Source: Nitrospinaceae bacterium | GTDB lineage: Bacteria; Nitrospinota; Nitrospinia; Nitrospinales; Nitrospinaceae | Assembly: GCA_965223665.1 (NCBI GenBank) | Contig: OZ245011.1 | Location: forward strand, 3,008,001-3,072,000 | Direction of reading: 5' to 3' | DNA: 64,000 nucleotides | Shown: in pieces, positions 13,167 to 29,716 of the stretch | How positions within the stretch are numbered: position 1 is the stretch's first letter | Layout: every line of letters starts with the position of its first letter | Notes under the pieces: model-generated | Database searches by the model: none | Told to the model about the DNA's origin: nothing | The model's input: only the letters and a program-made list of their open reading frames with translations | Made by a program: the position numbers and the translations under genes

Positions 13167-13243
<77 letters not shown>

Positions 13244-13286
13244 AAAATCAATGGGTTATGAATTTAGGCTAACTTCAAAACTATCT

Positions 13287-14296: not shown

Positions 14297-14620
14297 TTAT
14301 ATTTTGGTTAATTTCAAATTCCCTATTGACTGAACCATCCGATTCAATTCCCGCCTTACCCTCATGGATTCTTTTCTTTGTTGAATAACTTCTGCAGATC
14401 GGTTCCCGTGTTTCCAGTTAGCTTTCCGACTTCGCTCTAAACCTGCCAATGTGCGGGGTCCTGTGCTCTTGCCCCCATGCAATCGACAGCGTCCATTTTT
14501 CATTGCGGGACTTTGGCAAGGAGTTTGTTTTCTGGTTTTGGCACCACAGCGAGGAGTTTGATTAGCATAGTTTAAACCTATCTTCCAAATGGGCTGATGG
14601 GGTTCATTGACGTTTCTCAT
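14297..14620 (-). CDS. HGGxSTG domain protein
   Basis: RCGAKTR...CQSPAMKNGRCRLHGGKSTGPRT...ANWKHG. Confidence 0.9.
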   Translation of the reverse strand: MRNVNEPHQPIWKIGLNYANQTPRCGAKTRKQTPCQSPAMKNGRCRLHGGKSTGPRTLAGLERSRKANWKHGNRSAEVIQQRKESMRVRRELNRMVQSIGNLKLTKI

Positions 14621-15315
14621 GATTCCCCCCTGGTATCTAAGGCCCCGGTGACTACCGCTTGGCCTCCATCTTTAACATTGATATGCTGCACCGTGATAGT
14701 CTGGTTCCCTCCAGTTCGAAGTTTATGGAGAGCCATTAAACCTTTCTGAAAACTATCCATCATTCGGGCAGAAGCATTGGATGCTCGTATAGACTCTAAT
14801 GAATAATATTCCTTACTATGGAGGGTGATTGCATTATCACTTTCACTCAAATTTTTAAGTGAACGACTGGCAAAAGTCATTGCCAGTTTATGAGCTGCTC
14901 CTAATTGGTGAGCCAACATTTTTTCCAACGAGTTCTTCGCTTGGATAGTTTCAGCCGCATCGAGAGCGAGTCCGGTGCAGTCTGCATCGAATATTAATTG
15001 CAGTCGTTCTTGACTCGCTTCGGCAGTGACATTATCAGGTTTATCAACAGTATTTACTAAAGCGGGTATTTCCTCAGCTCTTTCTTTGGAAAGAGATAAT
15101 TCACCTCCACAACCCACGGTGGGATGTTCATTCTCTGGAATCTTTATGGCTTCCTGAACCTGTTCTTCTAACTCATCAGCATCCAAACGCATAAAGCTTG
15201 CTCCCAAAGTATCTACACAAGGAGGAGATTCCAGTTCATTAGCCGTAGCTCTCAGGTTTTTTACTTCAACTTTATCTCGTAATGCTTTTTTTAATTTATC
15301 TTTAGGCTTTGACAT
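14617..15315 (-). CDS. Conserved hypothetical protein of the type often paired with HGGxSTG genes in integrative elements
   Basis: LEKMLAHQL...LHKLRTGGNQTITVQHINVKDGGQAVV; ATGA overlap with the HGGxSTG gene. Confidence 0.75.
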   Translation of the reverse strand: MSKPKDKLKKALRDKVEVKNLRATANELESPPCVDTLGASFMRLDADELEEQVQEAIKIPENEHPTVGCGGELSLSKERAEEIPALVNTVDKPDNVTAEASQERLQLIFDADCTGLALDAAETIQAKNSLEKMLAHQLGAAHKLAMTFASRSLKNLSESDNAITLHSKEYYSLESIRASNASARMMDSFQKGLMALHKLRTGGNQTITVQHINVKDGGQAVVTGALDTRGES

Positions 15316-15349
15316 AATTCATCCAAATAAAATTAGAATTATATGCTTA

Positions 15350-15649
15350 TTAATTTTTCCAATGTTTTTGCAGTTCTTCTCTAATAGCCTTAATTTTCAT
15401 GCTACCTGGTTTCCACCAATGGTACTTTTGATTGCAATCAAAAGGAATTACTAAACTTTTTTGTTCATTGAGATAAGGCTTGGGTGTTGATTTCTTAATT
15501 ATTTGAATTAATTGAGGCTTAAAACACTTTATTTGTTCAATTAAATCTTCCTCAATTGGTTGATTGCCTGCGCACTTTAATTGGTTTCCTTCAACGCTTA
15601 ACTCAAAACCTTTTTTTTGTATTTCTTTCAAAAATTGCTGAGGGGTCAT
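15350..15649 (-). CDS. Small protein with a TubC_N-like N-terminus
   Basis: LKEIQKKGFELSVEGNQLKC...IKCFKPQLI; ATGA-coupled to the primase stop. Confidence 0.6.
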   Translation of the reverse strand: MTPQQFLKEIQKKGFELSVEGNQLKCAGNQPIEEDLIEQIKCFKPQLIQIIKKSTPKPYLNEQKSLVIPFDCNQKYHWWKPGSMKIKAIREELQKHWKN

Positions 15650-18081
15650 ATCCTTACCTCATGTATAGGAGAATCTGGATTCCTTTTAGATTTATTAGGG
15701 GAAACGCCGTCATCGCCGTCAGGGCCGAACAATTCTTTATTTTTAAAGGTTTTATTTTTTGTCGGTGTCTTGTCGACGTTGGCCTGGGTCGACAAATCGC
15801 CGTCAAGAGCGGACTCTTTATTTGTCAAGGAGTTATCCTCCTTTATAGTGGCTCTGTCGGCCTGATCGGCCTTTTCCGGAACTTTTCTAAATGTGACAAT
15901 TTTTCGACCGGTGCCTGTTTCTCGTTGATCAAAATCGACTTCGATTCCGATTTCAAGCAGGGTAGGAGCCAACCTTCTGATTCGGTTCGAAAGTACGCTT
16001 GGAGATTTAGGCCATTGTCTGGTTCCACCAACTCTGGGGTCTATCTGTTTACCGAGCTCAGAAAGCAAATCTGAAAAACTGCCTTCCCATTTACCCAGCA
16101 TGGCCATCAATTCAATGATGGACTGGGCCAAGACATCTGTTTCCAGATTGTTTTCAATCGCTAAGGCAAGGTTATTCTCATATTCTTTTTGAAATGATCC
16201 GGACTCCCAACCTAGAGAGGATTCAGCGGCCGTCACCCACTTGGTAAAATCCGCCATGCGAGGATATGAATCCAAGGTTATAATTTCATTGACCTTATGG
16301 GCATGGCAAACTGCATCCAAAAGCGCTCCTAAAATTCTGGAACGGGCTTTTTCAAAATCCTTTAATAAAGTTTGTTCGTCTTTCCTTTTTTCTTTTGGGA
16401 TTCTTGGCAGGAATAAAATTAAAGATCTTACTCTAAGATCATCCCGTTTGCAGATGTCATCAATTCCATTCAGAATCAAAGGACGCTGAGATTCAAAGAT
16501 GATCTCTTCGGAATCTGTGTAAAGTTCTCGAGTACCAAGCCCTCCCCCCGTCGACAATCTGCAGAATGCATCCGATAGCCATGGGGAAAGGCCACTCAAG
16601 TTGTCAAAGGCTAATATCCAGGAGTTTTTGGCGCTGATCATCAAGTCTCGACATTCTTTCGGTGTACTTCTCAATGTCGATATTGAAGGATCGACTACAG
16701 AACGGATGATGCGACTGAAGGTAGACTTGGCAGAACCATGTTCGCCTTGAATGACTAATATAGGAAAAGGGCCTTTGGATTTTAAAGCTGCGATCAAATA
16801 ACCCACGACCAATTTTTTCTGGTCCTCACGAATATTAATGAATTGAAACAATTCATCAACCTTACCTCCAGATACTGGATGAGGAATGGGGTTCATTCCC
16901 CTCGCCCGGACAAATTTAACCGGAGATTGGGAAATAACTTTCCAACTTGTGCCAGTGATTTCTACGACTTCCCATTTGTTATTGCACAGATCTAGGTAGA
17001 TGTTTCCATTCGCTTCGCCTATTCGTGTATAAACTGGAATGGTTTTGCCCTCAAATCTAGCTCTACCTTCCAAAATTCCCAAGGCGTCACTTAGAGCTTG
17101 GTTGCCTGGGGGCTTATTGAACTGAGAGAAAAACTTATGACCTAGCCATAATTTGAAACCCTTCGATCGTACTTGACAAGTTTCATTATGGTCCTCTACC
17201 AAATAAGTCACATAGGCCGTCCCATCAGGATTGTGAAAAAATTCGCAACTTGAGGCTAGTTCAATCAACGACTGTGCCTGGGTGGGTTTTTCATCCCCAG
17301 ATAACTCAGAAAAAGAGTCAATAGAGGTGGTGGCGTCCGAATCGGGAATATTTTCTTCACCAAAATACTCTTCATAATTTCCTTGGTATATCGGAGCAGC
17401 ATCGACTAACTTCTTTAATTCTTCAATTGAATTTTCCTCAAGGTAATCAGAAACGTCATAGCCTGATTTGCAATCCTTAAATCGAATGATTTTGATGGAC
17501 TGAACAAAATTAAAAAGATGTTTCGAAACCAATTTGCCATGAGCCCGACCTTTTTCATCATTGTCTTCAATAATCACTACTTCCCGATCTTTAAAGTAGG
17601 GATTGTATTCAGATTTCCATTTTGCTTCGCCATCATAATTTGTGGTTGCGGTAAGTTTGTATTTTAATAAGGTATCGACATCCTTTTCACCTCCCACCAA
17701 ATAAACGGTTCCGGTACTATTTATTAACTCTGGAAGTCGGTAAAGGACCCGTTTTGTGTTGCCAAGTTTCCAAGTCCAGCCTCCTGATCGTTTTGGTTTT
17801 CTAAGTCGAAATTCTTTGGAAGGGTATCTTACCTTTTGAAAAAGGAGATTCCCGGTTTCATCCTGATAAGGGTATTCTTTGATTATGGATTCTGAATTTC
17901 CATCTTCTAGTCTGCCCTTCCAACCACAGTGGTGACAAACCCATACCCGTTTATCTAAATTGACGGACAGGCATGGTGCCGTCTTCTTTTTACGTGTATG
18001 AGAACATTTTGGGCATAATGCGCTTACTTCTCCTGCTTGTTTCTCATCAATCTTAATTCCAAAGTCAGCAAAGGTTAACAT
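15646..18081 (-). CDS. Zn-finger/TOPRIM primase fused to a P-loop ATPase/helicase (satellite replication protein)
   Basis: CPKC...CHHC Zn ribbon, TOPRIM VGGEKD and EDND, Walker A-like GEHGSAKST, FDNLS. The start is placed at 18081 because of an AGGAG RBS; the ORF track starts it at 18114. Confidence 0.85.
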   Translation of the reverse strand: MLTFADFGIKIDEKQAGEVSALCPKCSHTRKKKTAPCLSVNLDKRVWVCHHCGWKGRLEDGNSESIIKEYPYQDETGNLLFQKVRYPSKEFRLRKPKRSGGWTWKLGNTKRVLYRLPELINSTGTVYLVGGEKDVDTLLKYKLTATTNYDGEAKWKSEYNPYFKDREVVIIEDNDEKGRAHGKLVSKHLFNFVQSIKIIRFKDCKSGYDVSDYLEENSIEELKKLVDAAPIYQGNYEEYFGEENIPDSDATTSIDSFSELSGDEKPTQAQSLIELASSCEFFHNPDGTAYVTYLVEDHNETCQVRSKGFKLWLGHKFFSQFNKPPGNQALSDALGILEGRARFEGKTIPVYTRIGEANGNIYLDLCNNKWEVVEITGTSWKVISQSPVKFVRARGMNPIPHPVSGGKVDELFQFINIREDQKKLVVGYLIAALKSKGPFPILVIQGEHGSAKSTFSRIIRSVVDPSISTLRSTPKECRDLMISAKNSWILAFDNLSGLSPWLSDAFCRLSTGGGLGTRELYTDSEEIIFESQRPLILNGIDDICKRDDLRVRSLILFLPRIPKEKRKDEQTLLKDFEKARSRILGALLDAVCHAHKVNEIITLDSYPRMADFTKWVTAAESSLGWESGSFQKEYENNLALAIENNLETDVLAQSIIELMAMLGKWEGSFSDLLSELGKQIDPRVGGTRQWPKSPSVLSNRIRRLAPTLLEIGIEVDFDQRETGTGRKIVTFRKVPEKADQADRATIKEDNSLTNKESALDGDLSTQANVDKTPTKNKTFKNKELFGPDGDDGVSPNKSKRNPDSPIHEVRI

Positions 18082-18212
18082 TATGACCATCTCCTTTCTT
18101 CCCACCAAAGCCAAATACTGAGGATTAGGAGTATGGCTTGAGGCACAATTTCGTTGAAAAGCAACCGAGAAACTATGACATCGTAACTTAATTTTATTTG
18201 CCTAATTGTCAT
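18081..18212 (-). CDS. 43-aa small hydrophobic protein missing from the ORF track
   Basis: MTIRQIKLSYDVIVSRLLFNEIVPQAILLILSIWLWWEERRWS; overlaps the alpA stop (TGATG) and the primase start (TAATG). Confidence 0.55.
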   Translation of the reverse strand: MTIRQIKLSYDVIVSRLLFNEIVPQAILLILSIWLWWEERRWS

Positions 18213-18445
18213 CATGAGGTTATTCCTCCTTCTTCACCTAAAGTTCCCAAATTTCGTGAAGATCCACCCACCCCGCGAGGTCTTGATTCGATCCAGGCTT
18301 CAACTTCATTTAAATTCCAGCCCACACGATTTGAACTTAGTTGAATACTGAGAGGGAAATTCCCTGCCTTCATCAATCTCCAAATGGTGGACATGGACAG
18401 CCCAGTCATCTCAATAACTGTTTTCCTGGGGATGATTTTTTTCAT
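18212..18445 (-). CDS. alpA: AlpA-family regulator/excisionase
   Basis: IIPRKTVIEMTGLSMSTIWRLMKAGNFPLSIQLSSNRVGWNLNEVEAWI. Confidence 0.9.
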   Translation of the reverse strand: MKKIIPRKTVIEMTGLSMSTIWRLMKAGNFPLSIQLSSNRVGWNLNEVEAWIESRPRGVGGSSRNLGTLGEEGGITS

Positions 18446-18474
18446 TTTTCCCTTTTCAAAATTTGTTTTAGTCA

Positions 18475-18523
18475 AAAAAAAACGCTTCAAGGCATCGAGA
18501 AGCGTCTCAATGCCTTGAAGCGT
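18475..18523 (-). terminator. Terminator-like hairpin in the leader of the alpA-primase operon
   Basis: ACGCTTCAAGGCATCGAGA-agcg-TCTCAATGCCTTGAAGCGT, followed on the minus strand by a T-run, about 30 bp before the alpA ATG. Confidence 0.65.
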
Positions 18524-19207
18524 CCGGTTCGCACTCCAAGCGTGGTCTGGTTTAGGCGGAAACTAATTCAGTTAATGAAATAGTACAGACCAAATATTGT
18601 GCGTAGCCGCATGGTTTTTCCGACCATTAAATACTTAGTTCCAAAAATGCTTGGTTCCAAAGGTACATGCGACCACTATAAATTTAGGAGAGTTTAATAA
18701 TTATCCTCTCACTAACATAATATAAATTTTCTAATTAAAAGCCAAATATTTTTTTATTCTTTGGACCCTAACAATTGAATCCTTTTAATGAAAGCCCTTG
18801 ATAAAAAAATCTATTCTTTTTATTGATTAATCTAAACCTTAAATTTCAATGGTTTAATAAGGTTTTTATTTTAATCAACTGACTGGAGTAAATATTTTTC
18901 TAAAGGAAATTAAATAGACCATTGAGGCAATATTTGATAACACAAATTAGTTGAATCTGAAGAGATAGAAATGTTTTAGTGAAAAACTAGAATTAAATTA
19001 TTAGTAAGAAACAAAAACAAAGTTTACCATTATTCTTTCTCAAACCTTGGCCATTTGGAAATAGAACCTTTTCACAATTTCTTTACATGATAGATATTTT
19101 GTATTAAAAGAAAAGCATTCATTGCCTAGTTTGGCCATCAAGCTTAGAAGAGGAAGAGATAGCCCTGATAGACTATATCAGATATCAAACGACCGGTTGA
19201 AATGACT

Positions 19208-19223
19208 ACCCATAGCGGACATT
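19208..19223. repeat. Cassette-boundary palindrome, copy R0 (half site)
   Basis: ACCCATAGCGGACATT, 18 bp before the helicase ATG. Confidence 0.7.
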
Positions 19224-19241
19224 CGCATATAGAGTAAAAAT

Positions 19242-21083
19242 ATGGACTTTAAAATAATATTTTATTGGGGTGTTTTAATAGTATTTTTAATCTGGTGGCT
19301 CACAAGAAAAAAAAACGATGCTGAAAACAAAATAGTTGAGTACTCAGGCCCTCAAACTGGTGCGATAAAGAAAGAATTAAAGGAAACTCGTAAACCACAA
19401 AATTGGCTGGTCATAGATAAACCTCAAAGCTTTGAAAAAAATGAGGAAATCGAAGAAGTTCTCAATGCACTTGAAAATACAAACCAGAACATATTCCTAA
19501 CAGGAAAAGCTGGGACAGGAAAATCAACTCTCCTAAGTTATTTCCGTGCCACGTCCAAGAAAAATCCAGTTGTGATAGCTCCAACGGGGGTTGCTGCTGT
19601 CAATGTACAAGGTCAAACAATACATAGTTTCTTTGGTTGGGGAATTGATGTAACCCCAGAAAGAGTAAGAAAGCTTAGTTACGAAAAGTCAAAAATATAT
19701 AAAAAGTTAAAGATGTTGATTGTTGATGAAATTTCTATGGTTCGAGCGGATCTTTTTGAATGCGTCGACAAATTTCTAAGATTAAATGCAGGCAAGAAAA
19801 ATCTTCCTTTTGGAGGTGTGCAGATAGTTGTTATTGGCGATCTGTATCAATTACCTCCCGTTGTTAAAGATCAAGAACGAAAATTATTTGAAGGGATGTA
19901 TTCATCTCCATTCTTTTTTAATACTGCAGCCTTTAATAAAGGTTCTTTCAAAAAGTTTGAACTTAGTAAAGTTTACAGACAAAAAGACCCCAAATTCATA
20001 GCTGCATTAAATGCAATACGCGAGGGTGTTGTAGATGATAGTCATATTGAATTACTAAACCAAACAGTAATTGATGAAGAACCTGAGGATTTCGAAGAAT
20101 ATATTCATCTTGTTACCACCAATAGAATGGCAAAAGAAATAAATGATAACCGGATGCATTGCTTGCCATCAAAACCTGTTGTTTATGAAGGAAAATTATA
20201 TGGGACCTTCAAAGAGGAAAATGCTCCAACAGATTTAAGGTTAGAATTGAAATCAGGCGCTCGGGCAATGTTGTTAAACAATGATCGAAACAGAAAATGG
20301 GTTAATGGTGATGTGGTGAAAGTGTTGGAGACACGATCAGATTCTGTGCTTGTTGAGTTTGAAGATGACACGGTCCATGATGTGGGGTTTCATACATGGG
20401 AGACTGTTCGATTTATTTTTGATGAGGAAGAACAGAAAATTATTCCCAAAAAGATCGGAGGATTCACACAAATTCCAATTAAACCGGCATGGGCTATTAC
20501 TATACATAAGGCACAAGGAAAAACTTTTGAAAAAGTATTTATGGATTTAGGTGCTGGTTCTTTTGCAGAAGGACAAACGTATGTGGCTCTCAGTCGATGC
20601 AAAGCACTTGCAGGTCTAAAGCTTGCATCGCCGTTGATGATTGATGACGTTTTTGTAAACGAAAAAGTAAAGGACTTTATGTCTTTTACTCATGGTCAGA
20701 AAAATGAGACATCCTCTTCTAAGACAAAACAAAACCCAACACAGAAACAAACGAACCCATCTACTAATACTATATTAAAATCAGAAGAAAAGTTATCAGA
20801 GGAAGAATTTGTTCTAAATGCAATCAAAAATTTACGAACAGGAAATTACAAGGGTATTCATGTTGTATACAGTGGATTCAATAAAGCATTTCGCGAGTAC
20901 TTTGACGCTGATCCAGTTGAATCCGTTAAAAAATTAGAAAAAAATGGTGTGGTTGTAACTCGTCCTGTTAAAGGTGGTGTCATGCTTTATAATTCAAAGG
21001 AATACAGTGTTCCAAGCTCAAAAAAGAAAGAAGCGAGCAATACATTGTCTAAGATTTTAGGTGATGGGAGTAAAAAGCGTTAA
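19242..21083 (+). CDS. PIF1/RecD-like SF1B helicase with an N-terminal membrane anchor and an extra C-terminal domain
   Basis: FLTGKAGTGKS, APTGVAA, TIHSFF, DEISMV, GDLYQLPPV, AWAITIHKAQGKT, YVALSR. Confidence 0.9.
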   Translation: MDFKIIFYWGVLIVFLIWWLTRKKNDAENKIVEYSGPQTGAIKKELKETRKPQNWLVIDKPQSFEKNEEIEEVLNALENTNQNIFLTGKAGTGKSTLLSYFRATSKKNPVVIAPTGVAAVNVQGQTIHSFFGWGIDVTPERVRKLSYEKSKIYKKLKMLIVDEISMVRADLFECVDKFLRLNAGKKNLPFGGVQIVVIGDLYQLPPVVKDQERKLFEGMYSSPFFFNTAAFNKGSFKKFELSKVYRQKDPKFIAALNAIREGVVDDSHIELLNQTVIDEEPEDFEEYIHLVTTNRMAKEINDNRMHCLPSKPVVYEGKLYGTFKEENAPTDLRLELKSGARAMLLNNDRNRKWVNGDVVKVLETRSDSVLVEFEDDTVHDVGFHTWETVRFIFDEEEQKIIPKKIGGFTQIPIKPAWAITIHKAQGKTFEKVFMDLGAGSFAEGQTYVALSRCKALAGLKLASPLMIDDVFVNEKVKDFMSFTHGQKNETSSSKTKQNPTQKQTNPSTNTILKSEEKLSEEEFVLNAIKNLRTGNYKGIHVVYSGFNKAFREYFDADPVESVKKLEKNGVVVTRPVKGGVMLYNSKEYSVPSSKKKEASNTLSKILGDGSKKR

Positions 21084-21097
21084 TCGAAACATTAAAT

Positions 21098-21151
21098 AAA
21101 GTCCGCTTTGGGTCGAAATAGACCTGTCTGTCTTCGGCTAAAGCGGACTTT
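21098..21151. repeat. Cassette-boundary palindrome, copy R1
   Basis: AAAGTCCGCTTTGGGTCGAA...TTCGGCTAAAGCGGACTTT. Confidence 0.85.
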
Positions 21152-21239
21152 TGAAAATTCAATTTAAATTTTTCACACACCTAAATTTTATTGTTGTAGG
21201 AGGAGGGTTCCATAACAAGGGTTAATCAACATTCGAATA

Positions 21240-22112
21240 ATGACACAAAATACTTTTCGAACAACAACAATTGAAGAATTTTTTCATCCAATTTCTGGGC
21301 ATATAGTTCCTTTATATACTTTTTCAGGCCAAAATTCTTTCGTAGCTGGAACAGCTGTAATTATTGCTCCAGGTCTAGCTGTGACAGCTTGTCATGTGAT
21401 GGAAGCACTGCTTAATTATTTTGGGAACGATCAGCTAAAAGGTAATTTAGAATTAGATATTTACTTAACACAGCTAAATACAGGGGCGACATGGTATGTC
21501 TGCAATTCCGCTACTTGGGTTGGGACTGACATCACTGTTTTATCTCTTGTTCCAAGAAACTTTAATAAAGAGAAAAATGTTATTGGTTCGCTTCAAATAA
21601 CGGTAGATCCTCCCAATGTAAACGATACCGTTGTTGCCTATGGTTACCCAAAGACAGAATTAAATATTCCCAGAAATGACTCTGAGCAAACAGATTTAAA
21701 ATTTAAAGTATACCCAACATTGTCAGAAGGTTTAGTTTCTGAGATACATAATTCCAAACGAGATTCAGTGTTATGTAGATTTCCATGTTTTGAAGTAGGA
21801 GCAGAATTTAGTAGGGGTATGAGCGGAGGTGCTGTATTTAATCAAGATCGTGAATTATGCGGTCTTGTTTGTTCAGGTGGAGATGGGGACTTAAGAAACT
21901 ATTCCGTAGCAACAAGCATATGGCCGATGTCTATTATTCCTGTAATAATGCCAAGTGGTATAGCCTCTCATGATAGTGTTGTTTCAGGTGCTACATATAA
22001 GGTTCTGGATCTGGCAAAACAAGGTTACATAAAGATGAACGGGCATGAAAGGATTGAGTTCTTTAAACATGAAAATGGTTCGCAAGGGGTAAGACGTTTC
22101 CATAAAACATGA
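21240..22112 (+). CDS. Trypsin-like serine protease without a signal peptide
   Basis: Catalytic triad motifs TACHV, TDITVL and GMSGG. Confidence 0.85.
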   Translation: MTQNTFRTTTIEEFFHPISGHIVPLYTFSGQNSFVAGTAVIIAPGLAVTACHVMEALLNYFGNDQLKGNLELDIYLTQLNTGATWYVCNSATWVGTDITVLSLVPRNFNKEKNVIGSLQITVDPPNVNDTVVAYGYPKTELNIPRNDSEQTDLKFKVYPTLSEGLVSEIHNSKRDSVLCRFPCFEVGAEFSRGMSGGAVFNQDRELCGLVCSGGDGDLRNYSVATSIWPMSIIPVIMPSGIASHDSVVSGATYKVLDLAKQGYIKMNGHERIEFFKHENGSQGVRRFHKT

Positions 22113-22158
22113 ATATGTTTACTTCAATTCTATGGCAGTAAGGTTAGTATTGTCGTTT

Positions 22159-22210
22159 TGTCCGCTTTTGGCCGAATGTGCACATATTTGTTTTCGACCC
22201 AAGGCGGACA
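22159..22210. repeat. Cassette-boundary palindrome, copy R2
   Basis: TGTCCGCTTTTGGCCGAA...TTCGACCCAAGGCGGACA. Confidence 0.85.
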
Positions 22211-22307
22211 TCCGTCCGCATGAAAACCGAACTCCCCATAAGGAAATTTTAGAAAAATTTTTGTGAATTCTGGTGGTGCTTTTTTTGAAATGACCTGCGA
22301 GGTTACA

Positions 22308-23285
22308 CTAGCGACCTCTTTTTCTCCGCAGTTCGACCGTGGAATATTCTTCTGGACCAAACCCTCCTAACTTGATACCCGACTTGACATCCTTATATTT
22401 TTTCCCGAGACGCTCAATTCCTATATCCCTTCGCGGACCAAAAAGAAAGCGGCGCGCAGATACTGAACGTATCTTATTAATTTGCTTCACCATACTCGAT
22501 TTAATCTTAATTTCCCTAGGAAGTTCTTTGTCCCAAGTCGCCATCAAACAGGTTTTCTGTGAAAGCGGGAAAGTAAGTTGCACTTTCTTATGAATAAGTC
22601 CACCACCATAGAAAGGGTGTTGGTAAGCAGGGGGAACATCAAAAAATAATGGATTGTCACTAGTTATAAAATAATGCGGCTCTGGCGCCAGTAATATAGA
22701 CCAACACATTTTATAAAAGATTGGGCAAAATTTTTCGTAAAACTTTAGGGCTTGGAGTGACCATTCCTTGTCCACAGACACAATAAATTTTTGTGGATTA
22801 AGCATACCCTCTTTTAAACTTTTAATTTCTTCCTTAGTTAGAGGCCCTTGATCGCGTTGGTAATCCTTAATAAGGTTTTGAAATGCTCCATCATGTTGTG
22901 CAGTGGCGTACATTTTTAATTGATACGCGTTCATCATTATTTCAGCGTATTGATTCCTGAAGGAATCCGTTCGTAAATACATGAGGGCCATAAAACTAGC
23001 AAATGAGGCACGTTCCTGATCTGTAAGTGGTTTGCTTTCAATTAATTTATTAAAAATTGGGGCCGCTTTTGCTTCAATTTTAGAAAAAAAATCTTCCACT
23101 TCATCGGACCGCTGCCCATTTTCCAGCGTCACACTATAAAGATATTTTTCATAGGCAGTATTTTCGATCGTGGAAGTGCGCCCCTCCTCCAATTCAATGT
23201 CATAGGTCCAGATCTTTTCATCTGGTTCAATAGAAGCGAACCGTCGGAGATAAAATTGTGGAATGAAATGATGTTTTTTCTTCAA
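22308..23285 (-). CDS. DUF4238 family protein (family linked to anti-phage defence)
   Basis: KKHHFIPQFYLRRF, FITSDNP, FPLS motifs. Confidence 0.88.
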   Translation of the reverse strand: MKKKHHFIPQFYLRRFASIEPDEKIWTYDIELEEGRTSTIENTAYEKYLYSVTLENGQRSDEVEDFFSKIEAKAAPIFNKLIESKPLTDQERASFASFMALMYLRTDSFRNQYAEIMMNAYQLKMYATAQHDGAFQNLIKDYQRDQGPLTKEEIKSLKEGMLNPQKFIVSVDKEWSLQALKFYEKFCPIFYKMCWSILLAPEPHYFITSDNPLFFDVPPAYQHPFYGGGLIHKKVQLTFPLSQKTCLMATWDKELPREIKIKSSMVKQINKIRSVSARRFLFGPRRDIGIERLGKKYKDVKSGIKLGGFGPEEYSTVELRRKRGR

Positions 23286-23551
23286 AATTTTTAATTAAAA
23301 AGATGGTTTGTTTAGCTTTTGGGTGAGGCCTATGAATATGAATTGGAATGTATGGGGAAACTATTTCCTACGGAATCCGGCTCTAAAAGCATGCTCTTGT
23401 ATAATATATGGGATTTTGAAAGAAAAAAGTCAAGATTGCCCGAAAATTCATACTTTTCTGGCGAGCATAGTATTTGATTTTGTTTGGGATTTTTCTGCGG
23501 AAAACTCAAACAAAATGACAGGTTATTGTGCGATCCTTTTTTCTAGCTAAG

Positions 23552-23590
23552 TGTCCGCTTTTGGCCGGAAGGCGACCCAAAGCAGGCTTT
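23552..23590. repeat. Cassette-boundary palindrome, copy R3
   Basis: TGTCCGCTTTTGGCCGGAAGGCGACCCAAAGCAGGCTTT. Confidence 0.8.
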
Positions 23591-23696
23591 CGGCACAAGT
23601 TCCCTTAGCAGTCGAACTCGTGGAAGGTATGCTAAATTTTTCTTGATTGCCTAAACGGAAAGGATTAGGGTTGGGGGAACCCACGAAAAAAAGATG

Positions 23697-23724
23697 TGAC
23701 GGCTTTCGACCCATAGCAGACATT
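23697..23724. repeat. Cassette-boundary palindrome, copy R3b
   Basis: TGACGGCTTTCGACCCATAGCAGACATT. Confidence 0.75.
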
Positions 23725-23771
23725 TTTAAATGACAGAATTTTATCAGGAACATATATACGGTTGGAATTAA

Positions 23772-24770
23772 ATGAAAGCGATAACCTATAAAAATACGCT
23801 AACAACTTTACCTAATTGGGTAAAGGACCTCCACGAAAAAGAACCTCGAGGCATTGCATATGAAACCTCATCACATTTCGTCCATTTTTATTGTAGAGAC
23901 TATGGTTGGTGGGTTCTTTCTCCAGGAATCACAGTTGTTCAAAAAAAGAGTGATTCTTTAAATGACTGGGTCAAACGAACTTTTGGGGCTAAAAATATAT
24001 TAAACATGTCTACTAGGGTTGGTGAAAGCGTTAAAGGGGTATGGCGACCGGGCCTCTATTTTGATGATGAGATTCAGCAGGCTCTTTCGGTAACAACGCC
24101 AGGTAAGCATGAATCCCTCGTTTCAATAGGCCTTCTTCTGGAGTCCCTAGAAATTATTTTCCGTTACATAGAGCCTAGCCCAAATGGAATGTTGACATAT
24201 AGCCACAAAACCAGAGAATTACTGATTATCGCCTGTACAGAAGTTGAAAATCAATTGGCGCAGTATATGAAATTGGCCACTGCAAGGCCTATCAATAAAA
24301 AATTTTTTACCACTCAAGATTATGTTCGGCTATCTGACCCTCTTCATCTCTCTGATTTTGTTCTCAGTTCCAAAGCTTACCCTCACATAGGCACTATACA
24401 TCCGTTTGGAGGGTGGAAAGGAGAGGGAGCCACATCCTCTATCCCTTGGTATGAAGCTTACAACCACACCAAGCACGACCGTCAGTTAAACTTTGACAAA
24501 GCAACATTAAAAAGCTGTATAGATGCCGTATGTGCGAACATTGTTCTATTCTGCGTGAGATATAGTCCTTACGCTCTTGTCCGCGAAAATGGCAATGCCC
24601 AATCTTTATTTGGTCAGCTCTTTAATATAGAAATGAAGAACTGCGATCCAACAAAATTTTATGTGCCTAGAATTGATATATCAGTAAATACACGAACAGA
24701 TTTAATTTGTTACAATAGCTACCAAAAAAAAGACAATTGCCCTTGGAATATTTCCCCACTTATTTTGTAG
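23772..24770 (+). CDS. Hypothetical protein, possibly HEPN-like helical C-terminal domain
   Basis: 332-aa ORF with RELLIIACTEVEN and PWYEAYNHTKHDR; function not established. Confidence 0.7.
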   Translation: MKAITYKNTLTTLPNWVKDLHEKEPRGIAYETSSHFVHFYCRDYGWWVLSPGITVVQKKSDSLNDWVKRTFGAKNILNMSTRVGESVKGVWRPGLYFDDEIQQALSVTTPGKHESLVSIGLLLESLEIIFRYIEPSPNGMLTYSHKTRELLIIACTEVENQLAQYMKLATARPINKKFFTTQDYVRLSDPLHLSDFVLSSKAYPHIGTIHPFGGWKGEGATSSIPWYEAYNHTKHDRQLNFDKATLKSCIDAVCANIVLFCVRYSPYALVRENGNAQSLFGQLFNIEMKNCDPTKFYVPRIDISVNTRTDLICYNSYQKKDNCPWNISPLIL

Positions 24771-24812
24771 TGTCCGCTTATGGCCGGTAGGTGCAATTGA
24801 CCAAAGCGGATA
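24771..24812. repeat. Cassette-boundary palindrome, copy R4
   Basis: TGTCCGCTTATGGCCGG...GACCAAAGCGGATA, starting at the base after the TAG stop. Confidence 0.8.
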
Positions 24813-24832
24813 ATTACCTAAGGAGATAGAGA

Positions 24833-25702
24833 TTGTATAATTTACTGGTTTCAAGTAATGACGAGGCTTGGGATAGTGACTCATACACCCTAGAGATAGG
24901 CCGTTGTGTTCGTGAATATACAGATGTAAATTTAACTAAAAAGTATGGAGACTTTACTCAAGAGCAAGTTGATTCAATTAGACGTTTTCCTTGCATATTT
25001 GCTTACGAGTCTGGGCACAAAAAAAATCCCAAATTTGGAATTATCAAAGACTTAACAAGTCGCCAAGGAAAAGTTAAGATTGAATACGAATTAATTGAAA
25101 TTGATGATTTTATTTCTCACTCTGATATTAATGAGATGCTATTTGAGTTGGATATCAGTGACTGGGAGATGAATAGAACTCACTGGGCTATTAAAGATGT
25201 TAACCTACCTAAGGAACTTTTATCAAAAGGAGTTCGTCTTCCGAATTGGGCGAGAAGTGAGTCAAAAGCTGTTGATATTACAAAGCACATGTTTGATGTG
25301 GCATTTTCCTTTCCGGGAGAAATTAGGAAATATGTTGAGTCAATAGCGGCAGAATTAGAAAAAGAAATTGGGCCAAATTCATACTTTTATGACAATAATT
25401 ATAAGGCTCAACTAGCAAGGCCTTCTCTTGATACCTTGCTACAAGAAATTTATGGTTGTAGATCTAAACTGGTTGTGATTTTTCTATGCGAAAAGTACCA
25501 AGAAAAAGAGTGGTGTGGCATAGAGTTTAGAGCAATCAGAGAAATTATCATGAATCGAGACCATGAGAAAGTTATGTTCATCAAGATGGACGAAGGTAAG
25601 ATTGATGGTGTCTTCAAAACAGATGGCTACATTGATGGGCGTATCCACAAACCCCATCAGATAGCTGGTTATATTCAAGAGCGTGTTTCATTACTGTCAT
25701 AA
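24833..25702 (+). CDS. TIR-domain protein with an uncharacterised N-terminal domain
   Basis: FDVAFSFPGE, FYDN, SKLVVIFLCEKYQEKEWCGIE (catalytic-position Glu present); AAGGAG RBS with TTG start. Confidence 0.88.
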   Translation: MYNLLVSSNDEAWDSDSYTLEIGRCVREYTDVNLTKKYGDFTQEQVDSIRRFPCIFAYESGHKKNPKFGIIKDLTSRQGKVKIEYELIEIDDFISHSDINEMLFELDISDWEMNRTHWAIKDVNLPKELLSKGVRLPNWARSESKAVDITKHMFDVAFSFPGEIRKYVESIAAELEKEIGPNSYFYDNNYKAQLARPSLDTLLQEIYGCRSKLVVIFLCEKYQEKEWCGIEFRAIREIIMNRDHEKVMFIKMDEGKIDGVFKTDGYIDGRIHKPHQIAGYIQERVSLLS

Positions 25703-25759
25703 CAACGCACTGTTGACGGATAAATTCTTTACCCCAAATTTGCCATAAACGCAGTATGA
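25697..25759 (+). repeat. Degenerate integron attC-like site overlapping the TIR gene stop
   Basis: TCATAAC-AACGC-ACTGTTGACGGATAAATT...AATTTGCC...GTATGA imperfect hairpin; the R' end lacks one T. Confidence 0.5.
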
Positions 25760-25773
25760 ATGTCCGTTTTGGG
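25759..25773. repeat. Cassette-boundary palindrome, copy R5 (degenerate half site)
   Basis: AATGTCCGTTTTGGG. Confidence 0.55.
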
Positions 25774-25844
25774 AAAGTGAGAATGGTCCTTATGAAAACT
25801 GAGTGCTGTTCCCTAGCAGTGGAGAGACAAGGAGAGTAGGAATA

Positions 25845-26363
25845 ATGAACGAAAAGAAAAAAAGAAGCCCAAACCAATGGATTTACTTTGGTCTTCCTGA
25901 AGATGAGAAATTGTTGTCAACTCTGGGAATTATGTCCATTAGACATGGTCAGCTTGAACATGTGTTAAAAATGACTATAAAAACACTTGGAAATCTCTCC
26001 ATAGAAGAAGCGTTGGATGCTACATCCCGTGATGGTCCGGCCAAACTGCGAAAACGCATTAGGAAACTTGCTCAGGGCATATTTAGAGAAGGAGAAACTT
26101 TACTAAAATTACAGGCGTTGCTTGCCCGTTCGGAGAGAGTTACTGAGCAAAGAAACGAAATGACGCACAATTTATGGGGTCATGAAATGGATGGTATCCC
26201 TGTGGTAAGGAAAGAGGACCATAGCTGGGAAACTGCACCTACATTTGAAGAGGTAAATAGTCTTTCAAAAAAGATTGAAACTATTACAAAGGAACTTAAT
26301 GACGCGCGCCTGCAAGGTTTTATTTATAAAGAAATTGAAAAAAACAAAAAATCCAATCAATAA
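25845..26363 (+). CDS. Hypothetical helical protein with a HEPN-like Rx4H motif
   Basis: HGQLEHVL...RNEMTHNLW; the ATG at 25845 follows a purine-rich RBS. Confidence 0.65.
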   Translation: MNEKKKRSPNQWIYFGLPEDEKLLSTLGIMSIRHGQLEHVLKMTIKTLGNLSIEEALDATSRDGPAKLRKRIRKLAQGIFREGETLLKLQALLARSERVTEQRNEMTHNLWGHEMDGIPVVRKEDHSWETAPTFEEVNSLSKKIETITKELNDARLQGFIYKEIEKNKKSNQ

Positions 26364-26467
26364 AACCAAATGTAATAACGCTTATTGTGGAAATGGGTGA
26401 TTGCTCTATCCGATTGAGTTGTCTCTAGGGAATAGATAAAGAATATCCTTTAAACTTTCCTTGGCCG

Positions 26468-26641
26468 AAAGTCCGCTTTTGGCCCAGACTGTGTGAAAAC
26501 TCAAAACCAACTTGAAATTGAGGGTGCCTAACCCCTTCCCCATATAACAATAACAGCTTTACGGGCTTCTGGTGTAGTCGGTTTTCAGTAAGGAACCTTG
26601 CTATCAGAGTTTTCACACAATCTGGGCCGATAGCCGTCTTT
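26468..26641. repeat. Cassette-boundary palindrome, copy R6, split by a MITE
   Basis: Removing the MITE and one GGCC gives AAAGTCCGCTTTTGGCCGATAGCCGTCTTT. Confidence 0.75.
26485..26624. mobile_element. 140-bp MITE (non-autonomous IS derivative)
   Basis: 18-bp terminal inverted repeats CAGACTGTGTGAAAACTC / GAGTTTTCACACAATCTG (17/18 match), flanked by GGCC on both sides. Confidence 0.8.
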
Positions 26642-26753
26642 CCAAATTCGAATTCTAAAGTTTAGATAATTACCAACTCCCAAATGATGAACATATGACG
26701 CTCAAGTCCTCTATTGAAGTTGGAGCATGAGAAGGATTTAAGCATTTTCAGAA

Positions 26754-27962
26754 TTACTTTTGATGAATTTTGACTATCTTTTCTTTAGGTTTGCCAGTCA
26801 CAAGGCTTTCAAGATTTCGACCCCATGAGTTTAGGGCCATCCGTTTTTCCCGATCATAGCTATGGCGATCATAAACAGAAGTTACTCCTGATTCAACATG
26901 GTTTAAAATTTTAGAAACTGTGAGTCGGGGGATACCTGAGGCCGTCATCATGCTCGCAGAGGTACGACGAAGGTCATGGGGTGTGAAATGTGCGATCTGG
27001 AAATGATTCGCATTGATTCTTACTGCGTGATCCACTGAGGTTTCGGCGATATGCCTTTCTCCTCTAGGGGAAGGAAAGAGCCATGGAGAGAGGACAGTAA
27101 TTTCTTTTAATTCTTCCAGAATTTGAAGGGCAAAATTAGATAAAGGAACCCGGTGAGGAAAACCATTCTTGGCTTTTTCAGCCGGTATTGTCCACCAACC
27201 TTTTTTTAAGTCAAAATCTTTCCATTCAGCCCCAGTCACTTCACCTTTTCTTTGGGCTGTGACCAATTGGAGCTTTAAGGCTAAAGCTGTGGTTGATTCC
27301 ATTCTGGCCGAATCCAGTTTTTTCCAAAAAATTTGAATTTCTTCTTCGTTAAGTACTCTATCGCGTCTATTTTCTTTTGAAGGAGCAGGAATAGCGACAC
27401 AGGGACTGGAATCCAAAATTCCACGGCCCATGGCAAAGGAATACATTTTGCGAATAGCGGCAAGGGTACGGTTGGCTTGGATCAGAGCTCCACGTTCAAC
27501 AATTTCATCGAGAAGTAGGATGACGTCTCGACGAGTAATATCCTGTGCCTTGCGTTTTCCCCAACGGGTTATTACATCCTTATGCAAAATGCGCTCGTCT
27601 TCTTTCCATGATCTCTTTCTTGGTTTGGCATATTTTTCAATATATTCATCTACCAACCTTTTAACTGTAGGGGAACGACGAGATTCTTCCTTTTCTTCTT
27701 GTTCCACTGTTGCTGGATCAATGACTCTTTCAAGCAGTTGTCGGGCCTTCGCATGGTCGGCATGGGCATCGGCCAAAGACTTTTGGGGATAGTTGCCAAA
27801 TGTCATCCGCCGGGAGGTTCCTTGAAATCGGTATAAGAAGATAAAACTTTTTCTACCGGTAGGGGAAACACGGATTCCAAAACCTTTACCATTATCTTCC
27901 CAAATCTCATATCGTTGGCTTTTAGGTTTAAGTGCTTTAATTTGACGGTCGGTAAACTTCAT
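26754..27962 (-). CDS. int: P4-like tyrosine integrase with an N-terminal arm-binding domain
   Basis: MKFTDRQIKALKP...GFGIRVSPTGRKSF arm domain; catalytic R (AQRKGE), K (KAKNG), HDLRR, LNH and VY are all intact. Confidence 0.93.
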   Translation of the reverse strand: MKFTDRQIKALKPKSQRYEIWEDNGKGFGIRVSPTGRKSFIFLYRFQGTSRRMTFGNYPQKSLADAHADHAKARQLLERVIDPATVEQEEKEESRRSPTVKRLVDEYIEKYAKPRKRSWKEDERILHKDVITRWGKRKAQDITRRDVILLLDEIVERGALIQANRTLAAIRKMYSFAMGRGILDSSPCVAIPAPSKENRRDRVLNEEEIQIFWKKLDSARMESTTALALKLQLVTAQRKGEVTGAEWKDFDLKKGWWTIPAEKAKNGFPHRVPLSNFALQILEELKEITVLSPWLFPSPRGERHIAETSVDHAVRINANHFQIAHFTPHDLRRTSASMMTASGIPRLTVSKILNHVESGVTSVYDRHSYDREKRMALNSWGRNLESLVTGKPKEKIVKIHQK

Positions 27963-28049
27963 AAAATTCTGACTTTCAATCAGTTGGTTTAATGCAGCAA
28001 TTTCTGGTACAAAATTTTTTAACTCATTCCTCCACAAAATGAATTATCT

Positions 28050-28085
28050 GCTACCCATGAGCTTGGGGGTAGCATTGTGGGTAGC
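28050..28085. promoter_or_regulatory. Putative integrase arm-type sites, right end
   Basis: GCTACCCA (inverted) at 28050, GGGGTAGC at 28066 and TGGGTAGC at 28078 (12-bp period). Confidence 0.65.
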
Positions 28086-28241
28086 AAAATTGACCTGGCA
28101 ATGGGTGAAACAGAGTGAAATAATCTGATTAAGAAAATAGCATAAAAACTGTTTAAATACAATTAATTATGATATTAATGGTAGGTGTTCAGGGTGTTTC
28201 AGGAGGGGTCACCAATATTCAGCATATTTCAAACATGGACC

Positions 28242-28289
28242 GATTCGTAATCAGTAGGTCAGCGGTTCAATTCCGCTCGGTGGCTCCAT
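28242..28289 (+). repeat. att core direct repeat, right copy (tRNA-Thr 3' fragment)
   Basis: 48-bp exact copy of 13196..13243; the tRNA 5' half is absent. Confidence 0.95.
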
Positions 28290-28501
28290 TAAATCCCTAA
28301 AAATTTAAATATATATAGACCATTGTCTTATTAATTGGAAACGCCTGTTTAAAAATAATAAAGTGAAAATAAGGGTTGGAATCCAATAAAATAATTGGAC
28401 CGTAGCGGGAGTAATACAATACAAATCAACTTCATATGAAAGTAGGTTAAACACCACCATGAAATTATATAAATTTCTGGAACAAGCCATGTGGAGAACA
28501 T

Positions 28502-28731
28502 ATGGATATTAATATTATTCTTGCACTAAATTTTTAGCAATTACTCTTTTAGAGACCTTATCACCTGGACCCACATTTGCCTTAGTCGTACAAGCTAGAA
28601 TAAGTGAAAAAGAATCTGATATTAATAAGCTTTTAAGTGGAATAACTTTAGCAAATCTATTATGGGTCATTCTTGTTATTAATGAATACGAATGGTTTTT
28701 AACTTTAGGAATTGAAATTAAAAAAATATAA
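28502..28731 (+). pseudogene. LysE/RhtB-family translocator remnant
   Basis: GGAG RBS and ATG, then a frameshift into FLAITLLETLSPGPTFALVVQ...GITLANLLWVIL (SPGP motif); early stop. Confidence 0.6.
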
Positions 28732-29716
28732 TCAATCAAATTCCAATAACTCTACCTAACAGTCATAAGAATAGAATTAATATTTCTTTAATCTCATTAA
28801 GGGTATCAACCATTTTCCTGGATTATGTTTATTGGCGAAAAGGGGTATACTTCTTGTTTGTTATTATCATATTATTACCAATAAACCCCTGAAATTTTTT
28901 TATTAAAATTATACTTTTCAAAGTTTATCCATTTTACTCGACCACTTAAGGCCAAAGTTTTAATTCATGTGATTTAGAAACATATTGGATTAGAGATGAT
29001 TATTATAGGTAAGAAGTGTTATATAGTTTCGAGTAATTCCAGGTGATGTTTCGTTAAAGGGAGGTTTGGTTTTAAAGGGCCAATGTAAACAAGAAGTCTC
29101 ACAGAGTCTTAATTAATTACCAAAAAATCTGCAATTTATTTTTTTCTTTCCAAAGCTCAAAGTAACAACAATTCAAATTTATAACGTTTTCTACTTGTTC
29201 TCACCCTCTAAAAACGTCAATAAATTTTTAAAAATTTTTAACTTTACTTATGGAACACCTTTCTTAGGTGAAGCGGTCAATTAGGAACGGTATGAATTTA
29301 AATTTTGAGTTTGTATTCCTTTTTTATTGGAACTTTAAGGCATGAAAAAATCAGCTTAATTAAATCATTAAAAATAAACTTGTTAATCCATTTTCGATAC
29401 CAATCTTTCTTTCCTACGATTTTTCCTACTTTAAATTGGCTAGTTTTAGCCCAATACTTTCAAGTACTTAAAAAAAAGTATTTGACAATTTTGACTTATT
29501 TCCCTAGTGTTTGGCTTACTGAATTAATTTTCGCTATATAGAATTTTAATTTGTATTTTTATTCCGCTAATGAAGTTCAATGGGAGGGAGAGATAGGTCT
29601 TAACTATTTATAATATAGTTGATTATGGCCATTGAGCTCCTGGGTTGCAAAGTGCATCCTGTTTCCCTCCTCACAAAATATATTTTTACTATTTCCTAAT
29701 TTATAGGTGATTCCAA

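Follow-up and report, generated by a model that had tools for sequence, protein, structure and literature searches.

Gene cassettes bounded by short two-armed sites in a Nitrospinaceae satellite-like island: a possible integron-like gene-shuffling system

Several bacterial systems exchange short DNA modules at defined sites. Integron cassettes each carry one attC at their 3' end, a folded element of 55-140 nt with RYYYAAC/GTTRRRY ends. The pdif (XerC/XerD) modules of Acinetobacter plasmids are bounded by 28-bp dif-like sites, which resemble dif in having two different arms for two host recombinases. In T4-type phages, the promoter-early stem-loop (PeSL) "mobile regulatory cassettes" place a promoter and a stem-loop motif between the small accessory genes of hyperplastic regions, for which module shuffling has been proposed; these motifs are thought to recombine by homology within one phage group. 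P4-like satellites, finally, carry an integrase, a primase-helicase, an AlpA-type regulator and a variable defence-gene slot beside the integrase, and we know of no site-bounded multi-cassette organisation described for such slots. Here we analyse a 64-kb stretch of a Nitrospinaceae bacterium genome (contig OZ245011.1, positions 3,008,001 to 3,072,000; hereafter the window), in which an array of six cargo genes, separated by copies of a short repeat, occupies the cargo slot of an integrative, satellite-like island of 15 kb at tRNA-Thr.

The window array and the related arrays described below share with integrons, and with clusters of attC sites lacking integron integrases (CALIN), a layout of cassettes that are ~0.5-1.5 kb long, usually hold one gene, mostly lack a promoter and show an orientation bias, an extreme gene diversity that includes defence functions, a likely tyrosine recombinase engine and many arrays without a nearby recombinase. 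They differ in that IntI is absent, the sites are short (24-30 bp, two symmetric arms flanking a 6-bp core), each cassette has a site at either end and the cores of these two sites differ, exchange maps to the site centre, and neither an attI nor a Pc platform was identified. As in the pdif modules, discrete accessory modules lie between inverted arm/6-bp spacer/arm sites in varied contexts; unlike those of dif as generally described, the two arms are alike and their sequence is unrelated, the sites occur in several phyla, and the candidate enzyme is small and dedicated. A ~200-aa recombinase without a full N-terminal DNA-binding domain, short inverted sites and some cassettes found in both orientations recall the FimB/FimE invertases and the shufflons (Rci/sfx), but here whole genes of unrelated content are involved rather than a promoter or alternative gene ends, and whole modules differ between genomes. 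With PeSL the arrays have in common a short conserved motif between genes, which in some places follows a repeated promoter-like leader, whereas the motif here is of the recombinase-site type, common to several phyla and linked to a recombinase gene. The host island has the integrase, primase-helicase, AlpA-type regulator and cargo slot of P4-like satellites.

We lean towards the reading that the repeats are double-strand recombination sites bounding cassettes, that a small tyrosine recombinase is the likely enzyme and that the window array is an orphan. This reading is drawn from the anatomy of the sites, their distribution, the breakpoints at their cores and their linkage to a recombinase gene. 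From these observations we infer that the small recombinase acts on the sites, as well as where cleavage occurs, in which direction cassettes move and how often. We give about an even chance to the broader proposal of an integron-independent, cross-phylum cassette exchange, in which genes and small operons would hop by means of heterospecific 6-bp cores and a ~200-aa tyrosine recombinase, with the window array as one orphan example, and which would also bound defence cassettes of E. coli. This looks like an integron-like gene-shuffling system that is so far undescribed: nothing on the site or the enzyme was found in the literature searched, with subscription journals and supplementary files lying outside the search.

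Anatomy and distribution of the sites

A first-pass annotation, made from the letters of the window, had proposed that every junction between the six cargo genes carries a copy of one imperfect palindrome, noticed nowhere else in the window. A half-site pattern (GTCCGCTTWKGGYCG, at most 2 mismatches) scanned over the window gave 9 matches where 0.29 were expected, a number reached by 0 of 100 shuffles, and all of them lie within 19206-26485 (at 19206, 21101, 22160/22195, 23553/23573, 23707, 24772 and 26471), with none in the remainder of the 64 kb. The repeats are thus real and sit at the junctions; a further copy at 25759 is visible in the sequence, though too degenerate for this pattern. A relaxed 24-mer scan of the window returned 67 matches against 61 in its reversed control, and strict matches alone were therefore used. 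Over the whole genome (4.35 Mb), the half-site was found 10 times exactly and 20 times with at most one mismatch, against 0 and 2 for the reversed pattern; at two mismatches the counts were 47 and 25, and isolated two-mismatch matches are therefore mostly noise. The copies fall at 1.48-1.56 Mb and 2.242-2.244 Mb of contig C1, in the window, and on contigs C2 and C4. The repeat is therefore low-copy (~20-30 copies in 5 clusters) and clustered rather than scattered genome-wide, as a plain intergenic repeat would be. An Rfam scan of 12000-32000 matched tRNA only and left the repeats without an Rfam match.

Each "palindrome" proved to be one or two adjacent sites of 24-30 bp, usually paired, in which inverted arms of 9-12 bp (GTCCGCTTT / AAAGCGGAC) flank a 6-bp core, so that the repeated unit of the first-pass annotation stands while its description as a single palindrome does not. 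Because the outer side of the 6-mer often bears a second, degenerate arm, the single site is read as arm, 6 nt, arm; this form is fitted in the window by 21101, 21125, 22160, 22186, 23553, 23564, 23698, 24772 and 26471. The window cores are CGACCC upstream of a gene and TGGCCG downstream. In a set of oriented half-sites taken from the own genome and from 15 loci of relatives, 77 were retained at one mismatch or less, 46 of the form CGACCC-AAAGCGGAC and 25 of the form CGGCCA-AAAGCGGAC; conservation reaches into an ATT on the gene side, the outer side being a degenerate arm, and 23 sites show the minimal arm, 6 nt, arm unit. In their symmetric 9-12-bp arms, their asymmetric 6-bp centre and their hybrid make-up, with arms of different histories in one site, the units look like tyrosine-recombinase core sites.

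A hairpin-type palindrome, as first proposed, fits these units less well than a double-strand site. For inner arms that deviate from the consensus, a compensating outer arm was found in 21 cases, an outer arm still at the consensus in 66, and neither in 25. Folded as single-stranded DNA and compared with shuffles, the five window units gave z values of -6.15 (21101..21148), -2.45, -1.90, 0.13 and 0.35, only one of the five thus folding clearly better. Because the outer arms are mostly uncompensated and four of five units fold no clearly better than shuffles, the arms would behave as putative independent binding sites rather than as a hairpin. Empty arm-arm palindromes, with 0-5 nt between the arms, were searched for and none was convincing. 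The first-pass annotation was right that the repeats are neither attC, since the RYYYAAC/GTTRRRY ends are absent and the units measure 24-50 nt, nor CRISPR, and right about the lack of U-tails: terminator-like matches number 8 against 6.3 in shuffles, and one (21109-21126) overlaps part of a site.

Cassettes were counted over 35 loci of relatives. There, too, sites of the CGACCC type stand before the gene, and those of the second type, which reads GTCCGCTTT-TGGCCG in this orientation, stand downstream. The 54 site-to-site cassettes span 0.49-7.5 kb (median ~1.1 kb) and mostly hold a single gene; 46 have one core of each type, and in 36 of the 52 that can be oriented all the open reading frames (ORFs) run from CGACCC to TGGCCG. 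Where a cassette has two core types, its ends would be heterospecific, and it could then be swapped or moved and yet not be lost through recombination of one of its ends with the other. The cargo of relatives extends beyond defence to MaoC, Rieske, ankyrin, TPR, HEAT, MFS/TetR and GNAT genes.

Of 120 genomes examined in the phylum, 45 contain an exact 15-mer of the site, and all of these belong to the order of the window (44 of 101 besides the own genome, against 0 of 18 genomes in other orders), and its reversed control gave 0 in every genome; at one mismatch it was found in 29 of 41 relatives. Among viral contigs, 58 hold single 15-mer matches that by a rough estimate are near chance, and full-site-context matches alone were used: a 20-nt arm-core-arm pattern identified 17 IMG/VR contigs (those listed have 45-69% G+C), one of which carries an array around ORFs of 90-110 aa. 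A phage collection searched with the site gave no match. A 22-nt pattern was found in at least 120 metagenome contigs; the 80 loci listed have a median G+C of 0.58 (0.37-0.73) and up to 16 sites in one 14-kb locus, and one of them (L178) holds ~15 full sites, all pointing the same way, that separate small co-oriented ORFs. In other arrays the same arms are combined with other cores (TGACCC, TGGCAC). Sites are also present on Pseudomonas, Pantoea and E. coli plasmids and in E. coli chromosomes.

The proposal that the repeats mark the boundaries of exchangeable gene modules is borne out by breakpoints that coincide with sites in relatives, in E. coli and within the own genome. A MaoC-dehydratase cassette that two genomes of the same genus have in common shows 90.6% identity over 508 nt, and the homology starts at CGACCC and stops at TGGCCG between unrelated flanks. 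Four GC-rich prophage-like elements from IMG/VR have in common an integrase (99% identical), a CI-like repressor, CII and a prim-pol helicase. Their common sequence runs up to ...GGCCGCTTT CGACCC(A) and resumes from (T)GGGTCG AAAGCGGTC..., and the cargo between these breakpoints is an MFS transporter plus a TetR regulator in one element, a 775-aa protein in a second and a 388-aa protein in a third; the fourth locus ends shortly past the site. Because the inner arms differ and the outer arms are identical, the exchange maps to the 6-bp core or an adjacent base. In the own genome, an 85-nt leader, together with its outer arm and core, precedes three cassettes, the 332-aa gene of the window and two Shedu genes, and an alignment that includes the window site 23698-23721 shows the three loci diverging immediately past the site.

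The E. coli chromosomes offer a comparison at the population level. In one of them (L251), a small recombinase gene lies inside a defence-type island, and sites with a GTGCCA core precede, and those with a TCGCTC core follow, a large reverse-transcriptase cassette, a hypothetical gene and a dynamin-family cassette. When the dynamin cassette with its flanks was compared with 5426 complete genomes, 121 matched this query over at least 80% of its length and 1822 showed some match, the flanks being far more widespread than the cassette. Among the partial matches listed, some stop at query 298-299, the final bases of the site behind the recombinase gene, and others start at query 4244-4262, at most ~10 nt from the start of the site past the cassette; the module between two sites therefore varies in E. 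coli. The recombinase module itself, which spans core to core, is present at the DNA level in 982 of the 5426 genomes. In L251, a 1229-aa reverse transcriptase (1126-4815) and a dynamin-family pair (7961-11205) form separate site-bounded modules beside the small recombinase, and these modules adjoin a YeeP-like GTPase gene.

A search for cargo homologues covered one of the six cargo genes, that of the DUF4238 protein; homologues occur in 4 of 102 genomes of the order, the own genome counted. In one of the three foreign loci a site lies 39 nt before the gene, and the other two have no site at one mismatch or less.

Some further features accompany the sites. A leader of ~50-95 nt precedes several unrelated genes or operons (window 23628-23724; C1:2242090-2242186; C2:34683-34775, 33304-33354 and 31397-31440). 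It is promoter-like by eye and bears a 5' site in some places and none in others; repeats of this kind, 120-190 nt long, are also present in front of genes of relatives (L004, L009 and L016). A very plastic chromosomal region of ~100 kb (C1:1460000-1580000) is syntenic with one in a second species of the genus (G001 C13:2150000-2219000) and holds ~12 sites beside ordinary genes (SUI1, a second tRNA-Thr, ankyrin, TPR, HEAT). Upstream of this second tRNA-Thr, a 2.75-kb insertion at 1554389-1557125 of the own genome is flanked by a direct repeat of GCGGAATA and not by sites.

A small tyrosine recombinase beside the sites

All ORFs of the collected loci were compared with the tyrosine recombinases of the own genome. 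Besides island integrases, this screen yielded two small proteins of 206 and 218 aa inside the arrays of loci L042 and L158; one of the two comes from a metagenome contig and the other from a genome of the order of the window. They are 70% identical to each other and contain the Phage_integrase (PF00589) domain only. The candidate recombinase, of 200-218 aa, has merely ~40-50 residues before the catalytic domain, and its alignment displays LRxCDL, HSxRRT, LLGH and RY motifs, which we take to be the usual catalytic residues. No NCBIfam model reached its cut-off and no curated family covers these proteins (the tyrosine-type DNA invertase model scored 21-25 bits for a cut-off of 222); their nearest solved relatives are Xer proteins, at E ~1e-6.

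The gene occupies an inter-cassette junction, where a weak arm lies on either side of it and, beyond these arms, a downstream-type site on one side and an upstream-type site on the other. Eleven homologues from the phylum, a metagenome, plasmids and one E. coli chromosome were inspected. Sites adjoin the gene in all 8 with at least 60% identity (on a single side in one of them) and in none of the 3 with 55-58% identity, and these distant relatives may serve other site families. The site-less relatives include those on a Sulfitobacter plasmid (L252) and a Vibrio plasmid (L254); one adjoins a Tn7-like tnsB/tniB/tniQ module and another a type I restriction-modification locus. All seven viral contigs with full-length relatives of the recombinase hold sites (31 relaxed matches against 9 for the reversed control). 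The wider family comprises at least 8000 candidates at E 1e-20, and 445 plasmid records match.

Other routes to an enzyme led elsewhere. Three tyrosine recombinases of the own genome (the window integrase, a 376-aa integrase at 2.23 Mb and an Xer-like protein at 0.63 Mb) were compared by tblastn with a first set of loci from relatives and from the own genome, and gave no match in any locus of a relative. Clustering of neighbouring genes at the GTDB and viral loci returned only island integrases as recurrent; at the first 15 loci of relatives and in the own-genome regions the recurrent families were not recombinases, and at the 80 metagenome loci no family occurred in more than 3 loci. The annotated recurrent neighbours are ordinary genes (SDR, GGDEF, FGE-sulfatase and tyrosyl-tRNA synthetase). 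A serine recombinase was considered and rejected, none being present in the own genome. As to the partners that the first-pass annotation had suggested looking for, a recombinase that co-occurs with the sites was thus found in other genomes, while the search for an HUH/Y1 transposase (PF01797) gave 0 matches in the own genome. That annotation had named either the adjacent integrase or an enzyme acting in trans; trans action is the most likely, and the P4-type integrase is a poor candidate, its attachment site being the tRNA-Thr 3' end with GGGTAGC arms.

The window array and its island

The features of the island and of the array are collected in Table 1. Copies of the repeat lie close to gene ends, as had been claimed: the site at 24772 begins 1 nt past the stop at 24770 and that at 21101 begins 17 nt past the stop at 21083, while the gap between site and start codon is 21 nt at both 19242 and 24833. 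The junction 21101..21148 has its core types the other way round from the rest, and the DUF4238 gene runs in reverse orientation relative to its own sites. The last junction consists of 36-nt inverted arms, 86% complementary in a repeat search, around 104 nt in which a recombinase remnant was looked for and not found; the distance from this junction to the integrase gene, at its 3' end, is 112 nt. The 332-aa protein of cassette 4 had no match in Pfam or PADLOC.

Table 1. Features of the island and of its cassette array, in window coordinates
Feature	Coordinates	Strand	Description and evidence
tRNA-Thr(CGU) gene and left attachment site	13167..13249	+	ARAGORN; Rfam tRNA 72.7 bits
Island backbone	14297..18490	-	ORFs, PHROGs, tblastn
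Backbone gene, 107 aa	within 14297..18490	-	weak small-terminase-like match
Backbone genes, 232 aa and 99 aa	within 14297..18490	-	function unassigned
Primase-helicase, 822 aa	15646-18114	-	tblastn matches to phage primase/helicases
AlpA-type excisionase/regulator, 92 aa	18212-18490	-	PHROGs
First 5'-type site	19197..19220	+	core CTACCC, inner arm ATAGCGGAC; recognisable outer arm absent; 21 nt before helicase start codon
Cassette 1, PIF1/RecD-like helicase, 613 aa	19242..21083	+	Pfam PIF1 3.6e-32; PADLOC PDC-S68 and RecD-like matches
Two-site junction	21101..21148	+	21101-21124 GTCCGCTTT GGGTCG + weak arm; 21125-21148 weak arm + TCGGCT AAAGCGGAC
Cassette 2, trypsin-like serine peptidase, 290 aa	21240..22112	+	Pfam Trypsin_2 2.7e-12; PADLOC protease-domain matches
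Junction, 50 nt	22160..22209	+	3' site (GTCCGCTTT TGGCCG + weak arm), 2 nt, 5' site (weak arm + CGACCC AAGGCGGAC)
Cassette 3, DUF4238 protein, 325 aa	22308..23285	-	Pfam DUF4238 1.4e-50; PADLOC DUF4238-Pers 5.5e-8
Junction	23553..23587	+	3' site GTCCGCTTT TGGCCG, 5 nt, 5' site CGACCC AAAGCAGGC
Leader repeat, ~85-95 nt	23628..23724	+	ends in full 5' site 23698-23721 (GACGGCTTT CGACCC ATAGCAGAC); blastn, alignment
Cassette 4, 332-aa protein	23772..24770	+	function unassigned; full-length member of PHROGs phrog_19461, 1.4e-92
Junction	24772..24811	+	3' site GTCCGCTTA TGGCCG, 12 nt, degenerate 5' site GACC AAAGCGGAT
Cassette 5, TIR-domain protein, 289 aa	24833..25702	+	Pfam TIR_2 2.7e-7
Degenerate 3'-type site	25761..25776	+	GTCCGTTTT GGGAAA; visible in sequence, below half-site pattern threshold
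Cassette 6, 186-aa protein	25803..26363	+	no family match in Pfam, PHROGs, PADLOC
Last junction	26467..26642	+	3' site GTCCGCTTT TGGCCC + degenerate inverted partner
P4-type island integrase, 427 aa	26754..28037	-	Pfam Arm-DNA-bind_3, Phage_int_M, Phage_integrase; PHROGs phrog_1
Right attachment site, copy of tRNA-Thr 3' end	28239..28295	+	repeat comparison, sequence

The island is delimited by a 57-nt direct repeat of the tRNA-Thr 3' end (13193-13249 and 28239-28295, 96.5% identical). Just inside both ends lie GGGTAGC repeats (13290-13310 and 28045-28085), which are likely arm-type binding sites of the P4-type integrase. Within the own genome, the backbone segment 14334-18071 is 90% identical by blastn to 7771-11507 of contig C4, whose cargo differs from that of the window and contains the repeat too. 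Near-copies of the backbone (88-90% identity), each with different cargo and an integrase of its own, lie on the short contigs C4 (13.4 kb) and C6, which may represent additional members of the island family or metagenome variants left unplaced. A single low-depth contig (run X2) joins 13259 to 29416, skipping 16,156 nt, with a shorter side of 44 letters, and may represent an island-free form in the population. A plasmid search with island DNA gave no match, and a primase-based search for related loci in genome contigs returned two weak, uninformative loci. About 1.4 kb past the right attachment site, a single ORF of 3665 aa extends over 29717-40714 (+).

Proposed mechanism, competing explanations and meaning

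We propose that each site would comprise two inverted recombinase-binding arms (consensus AAT GTCCGCTTT ... AAAGCGGAC ATT) and an asymmetric 6-bp core at which strands would be exchanged, a cassette being the stretch that a 5' site (core CGACCC in the window) and a 3' site (core TGGCCG) enclose. The well-conserved gene-side arm would travel with the cassette and the degenerate outer arm would belong to its neighbour, and the stronger conservation on the gene side fits cassettes that bring their good arms to resident sites of weaker sequence. With 2-100 nt between them, a cassette's 3' site and the 5' site of its successor would then look like one imperfect palindrome. The likely enzyme is the 200-218-aa tyrosine recombinase, whose gene is located in inter-cassette junctions of other genomes; recombination between sites of the same core would excise, insert or swap cassettes among satellites, prophages, plasmids and chromosomal arrays. 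No small recombinase was found in the own genome (no match at E <= 1e-15, and tblastn matches to Xer-like genes only), and the window array is therefore an orphan; it may be frozen or reliant on a recombinase supplied in trans by another element, having been assembled elsewhere or earlier if it does not depend on such a supply. The integron-like stacking of defence genes put forward by the first-pass annotation thus survives as exchangeable modules with cargo wider than defence, while stacking one gene at a time and recombination itself would be deductions from the patterns above. Many of the genes moved would be putative anti-phage defences.

Several observations, with the absence of the enzyme from the own genome, weigh against this proposal. 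The candidate recombinase is present in 4 of the 120 genomes of the phylum (intact in 2) against 45 with exact sites, and its linkage to the sites rests on 18 inspected loci rather than an exhaustive survey. The breakpoint comparisons cannot tell an exchange inside the core from one in the first adjoining bases. All ORFs are reversed in 9 of the 52 orientable cassettes and mixed in 7, and no outer arm can be recognised at certain sites, such as 19197-19220. The alternating two-core pattern is not accounted for by simple integration of a one-site circle alone. Finally, no cassette-level circle, deletion or inversion was seen in the only public reads, 4 runs of low-depth metagenome contigs; this read comparison speaks neither for nor against cassette movement.

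The main rival among the explanations considered, which we nevertheless judge unlikely, is that the units are gene-less derivatives, comparable to miniature inverted-repeat transposable elements, of a selfish element made of two ~28-bp inverted ends and a 0.6-kb recombinase gene. Such an element would insert between genes of flexible regions, so that the cassettes would be passive and their exchange a by-product of recombination between copies. The units do resemble abutted inverted ends, and a "master" copy exists, though it encodes a tyrosine recombinase: its gene always lies between a 3'-type and a 5'-type site that are inverted relative to each other, with the weak arms facing the gene, in the place taken in the window by the spacers of 2-100 nt, and the conserved E. 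coli recombinase module likewise runs core to core. However, some arrays consist of single, full, direct sites, unpaired and one per intergenic space, L178 having ~15 of them; no target duplication was seen at the flanks inspected by eye (uncounted), no filled and empty pair differing by the unit alone was found, and the copies cluster in cargo regions without genome-wide spread. It is less probable still that the sites are regulatory or RNA elements (a 5'-leader hairpin, a 3' hairpin or terminator, or an operator bound by a conserved DNA-binding protein) and that modules are swapped by short-homology recombination, as proposed for the motifs of T4-type phages. The position of CGACCC sites at a median of ~50 nt before starts and of TGGCCG sites 1-50 nt past stops in most cassettes would agree with such a role, as would the location of some 5' sites behind repeated leaders that are promoter-like by eye and the 9-bp stem with a 6-nt loop that perfect sites would give. 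Yet the U-tract is absent, promoter and terminator counts equal those of shuffles, a single terminator-like match overlaps part of a site, the outer arms decay uncompensated and most units fold no better than shuffles. Moreover, the 6-7 identical bases at the exchange point of the four sister elements are too few for ordinary homologous recombination, and neither a near-identical sequence across phyla (37-73% G+C) nor linkage to a recombinase is expected of a terminator.

Use of the sites as secondary attachment sites by the P4-type island integrase or by the host XerC/XerD appears very improbable. Integrases are indeed the commonest shared neighbour of sites in viral contigs (11 loci), a site lies ~85 nt past the integrase gene in the four GC-rich prophage-like elements, and the last window junction is close to the integrase gene. 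But the attachment core of the island, at the tRNA-Thr 3' end with its GGGTAGC arm repeats, is unlike the sites, the site-adjoining integrases belong to different families, and no tyrosine recombinase lies within the stretches of flank covered around the arrays at 15 loci of relatives; symmetric arms, moreover, are not expected for the XerC/XerD pair. A remnant of a classical integron (an attC cluster) or a family of repetitive extragenic palindromes (REP) with its associated transposase (RAYT) is scarcely credible in spite of the array layout, the single-gene modules with their orientation bias and the short intergenic palindromes. The integron integrase model (TIGR02249) scored at best 82.8 bits for a cut-off of 265, its best matches being Xer-like genes of 300 and 314 aa, and the sites, at 24-30 bp, have neither the RYYYAAC/GTTRRRY ends nor a variable folded centre. 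The Y1 transposase (PF01797) had 0 matches in the own genome, which is 98.6% complete, whereas control genomes matched, and ~20-30 copies in 5 clusters without an Rfam match are not the dispersed repeats of a REP family.

If double-strand sites served by a small tyrosine recombinase do bound these cassettes, they would provide a simple sequence signature delimiting mobile modules in genomes and metagenomes, and thousands of "site-specific integrase" annotations would be flagged as one functional family. The recombinase and its sites would form a compact natural pair with several mutually exclusive cores. Such exchange would help to explain how defence islands, the cargo slots of satellites and the accessory regions of plasmids are assembled and reshuffled gene by gene. 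Integrons would then not be the sole general cassette-capture device of bacteria, and a second device would exist, with much smaller sites that standard finders miss.

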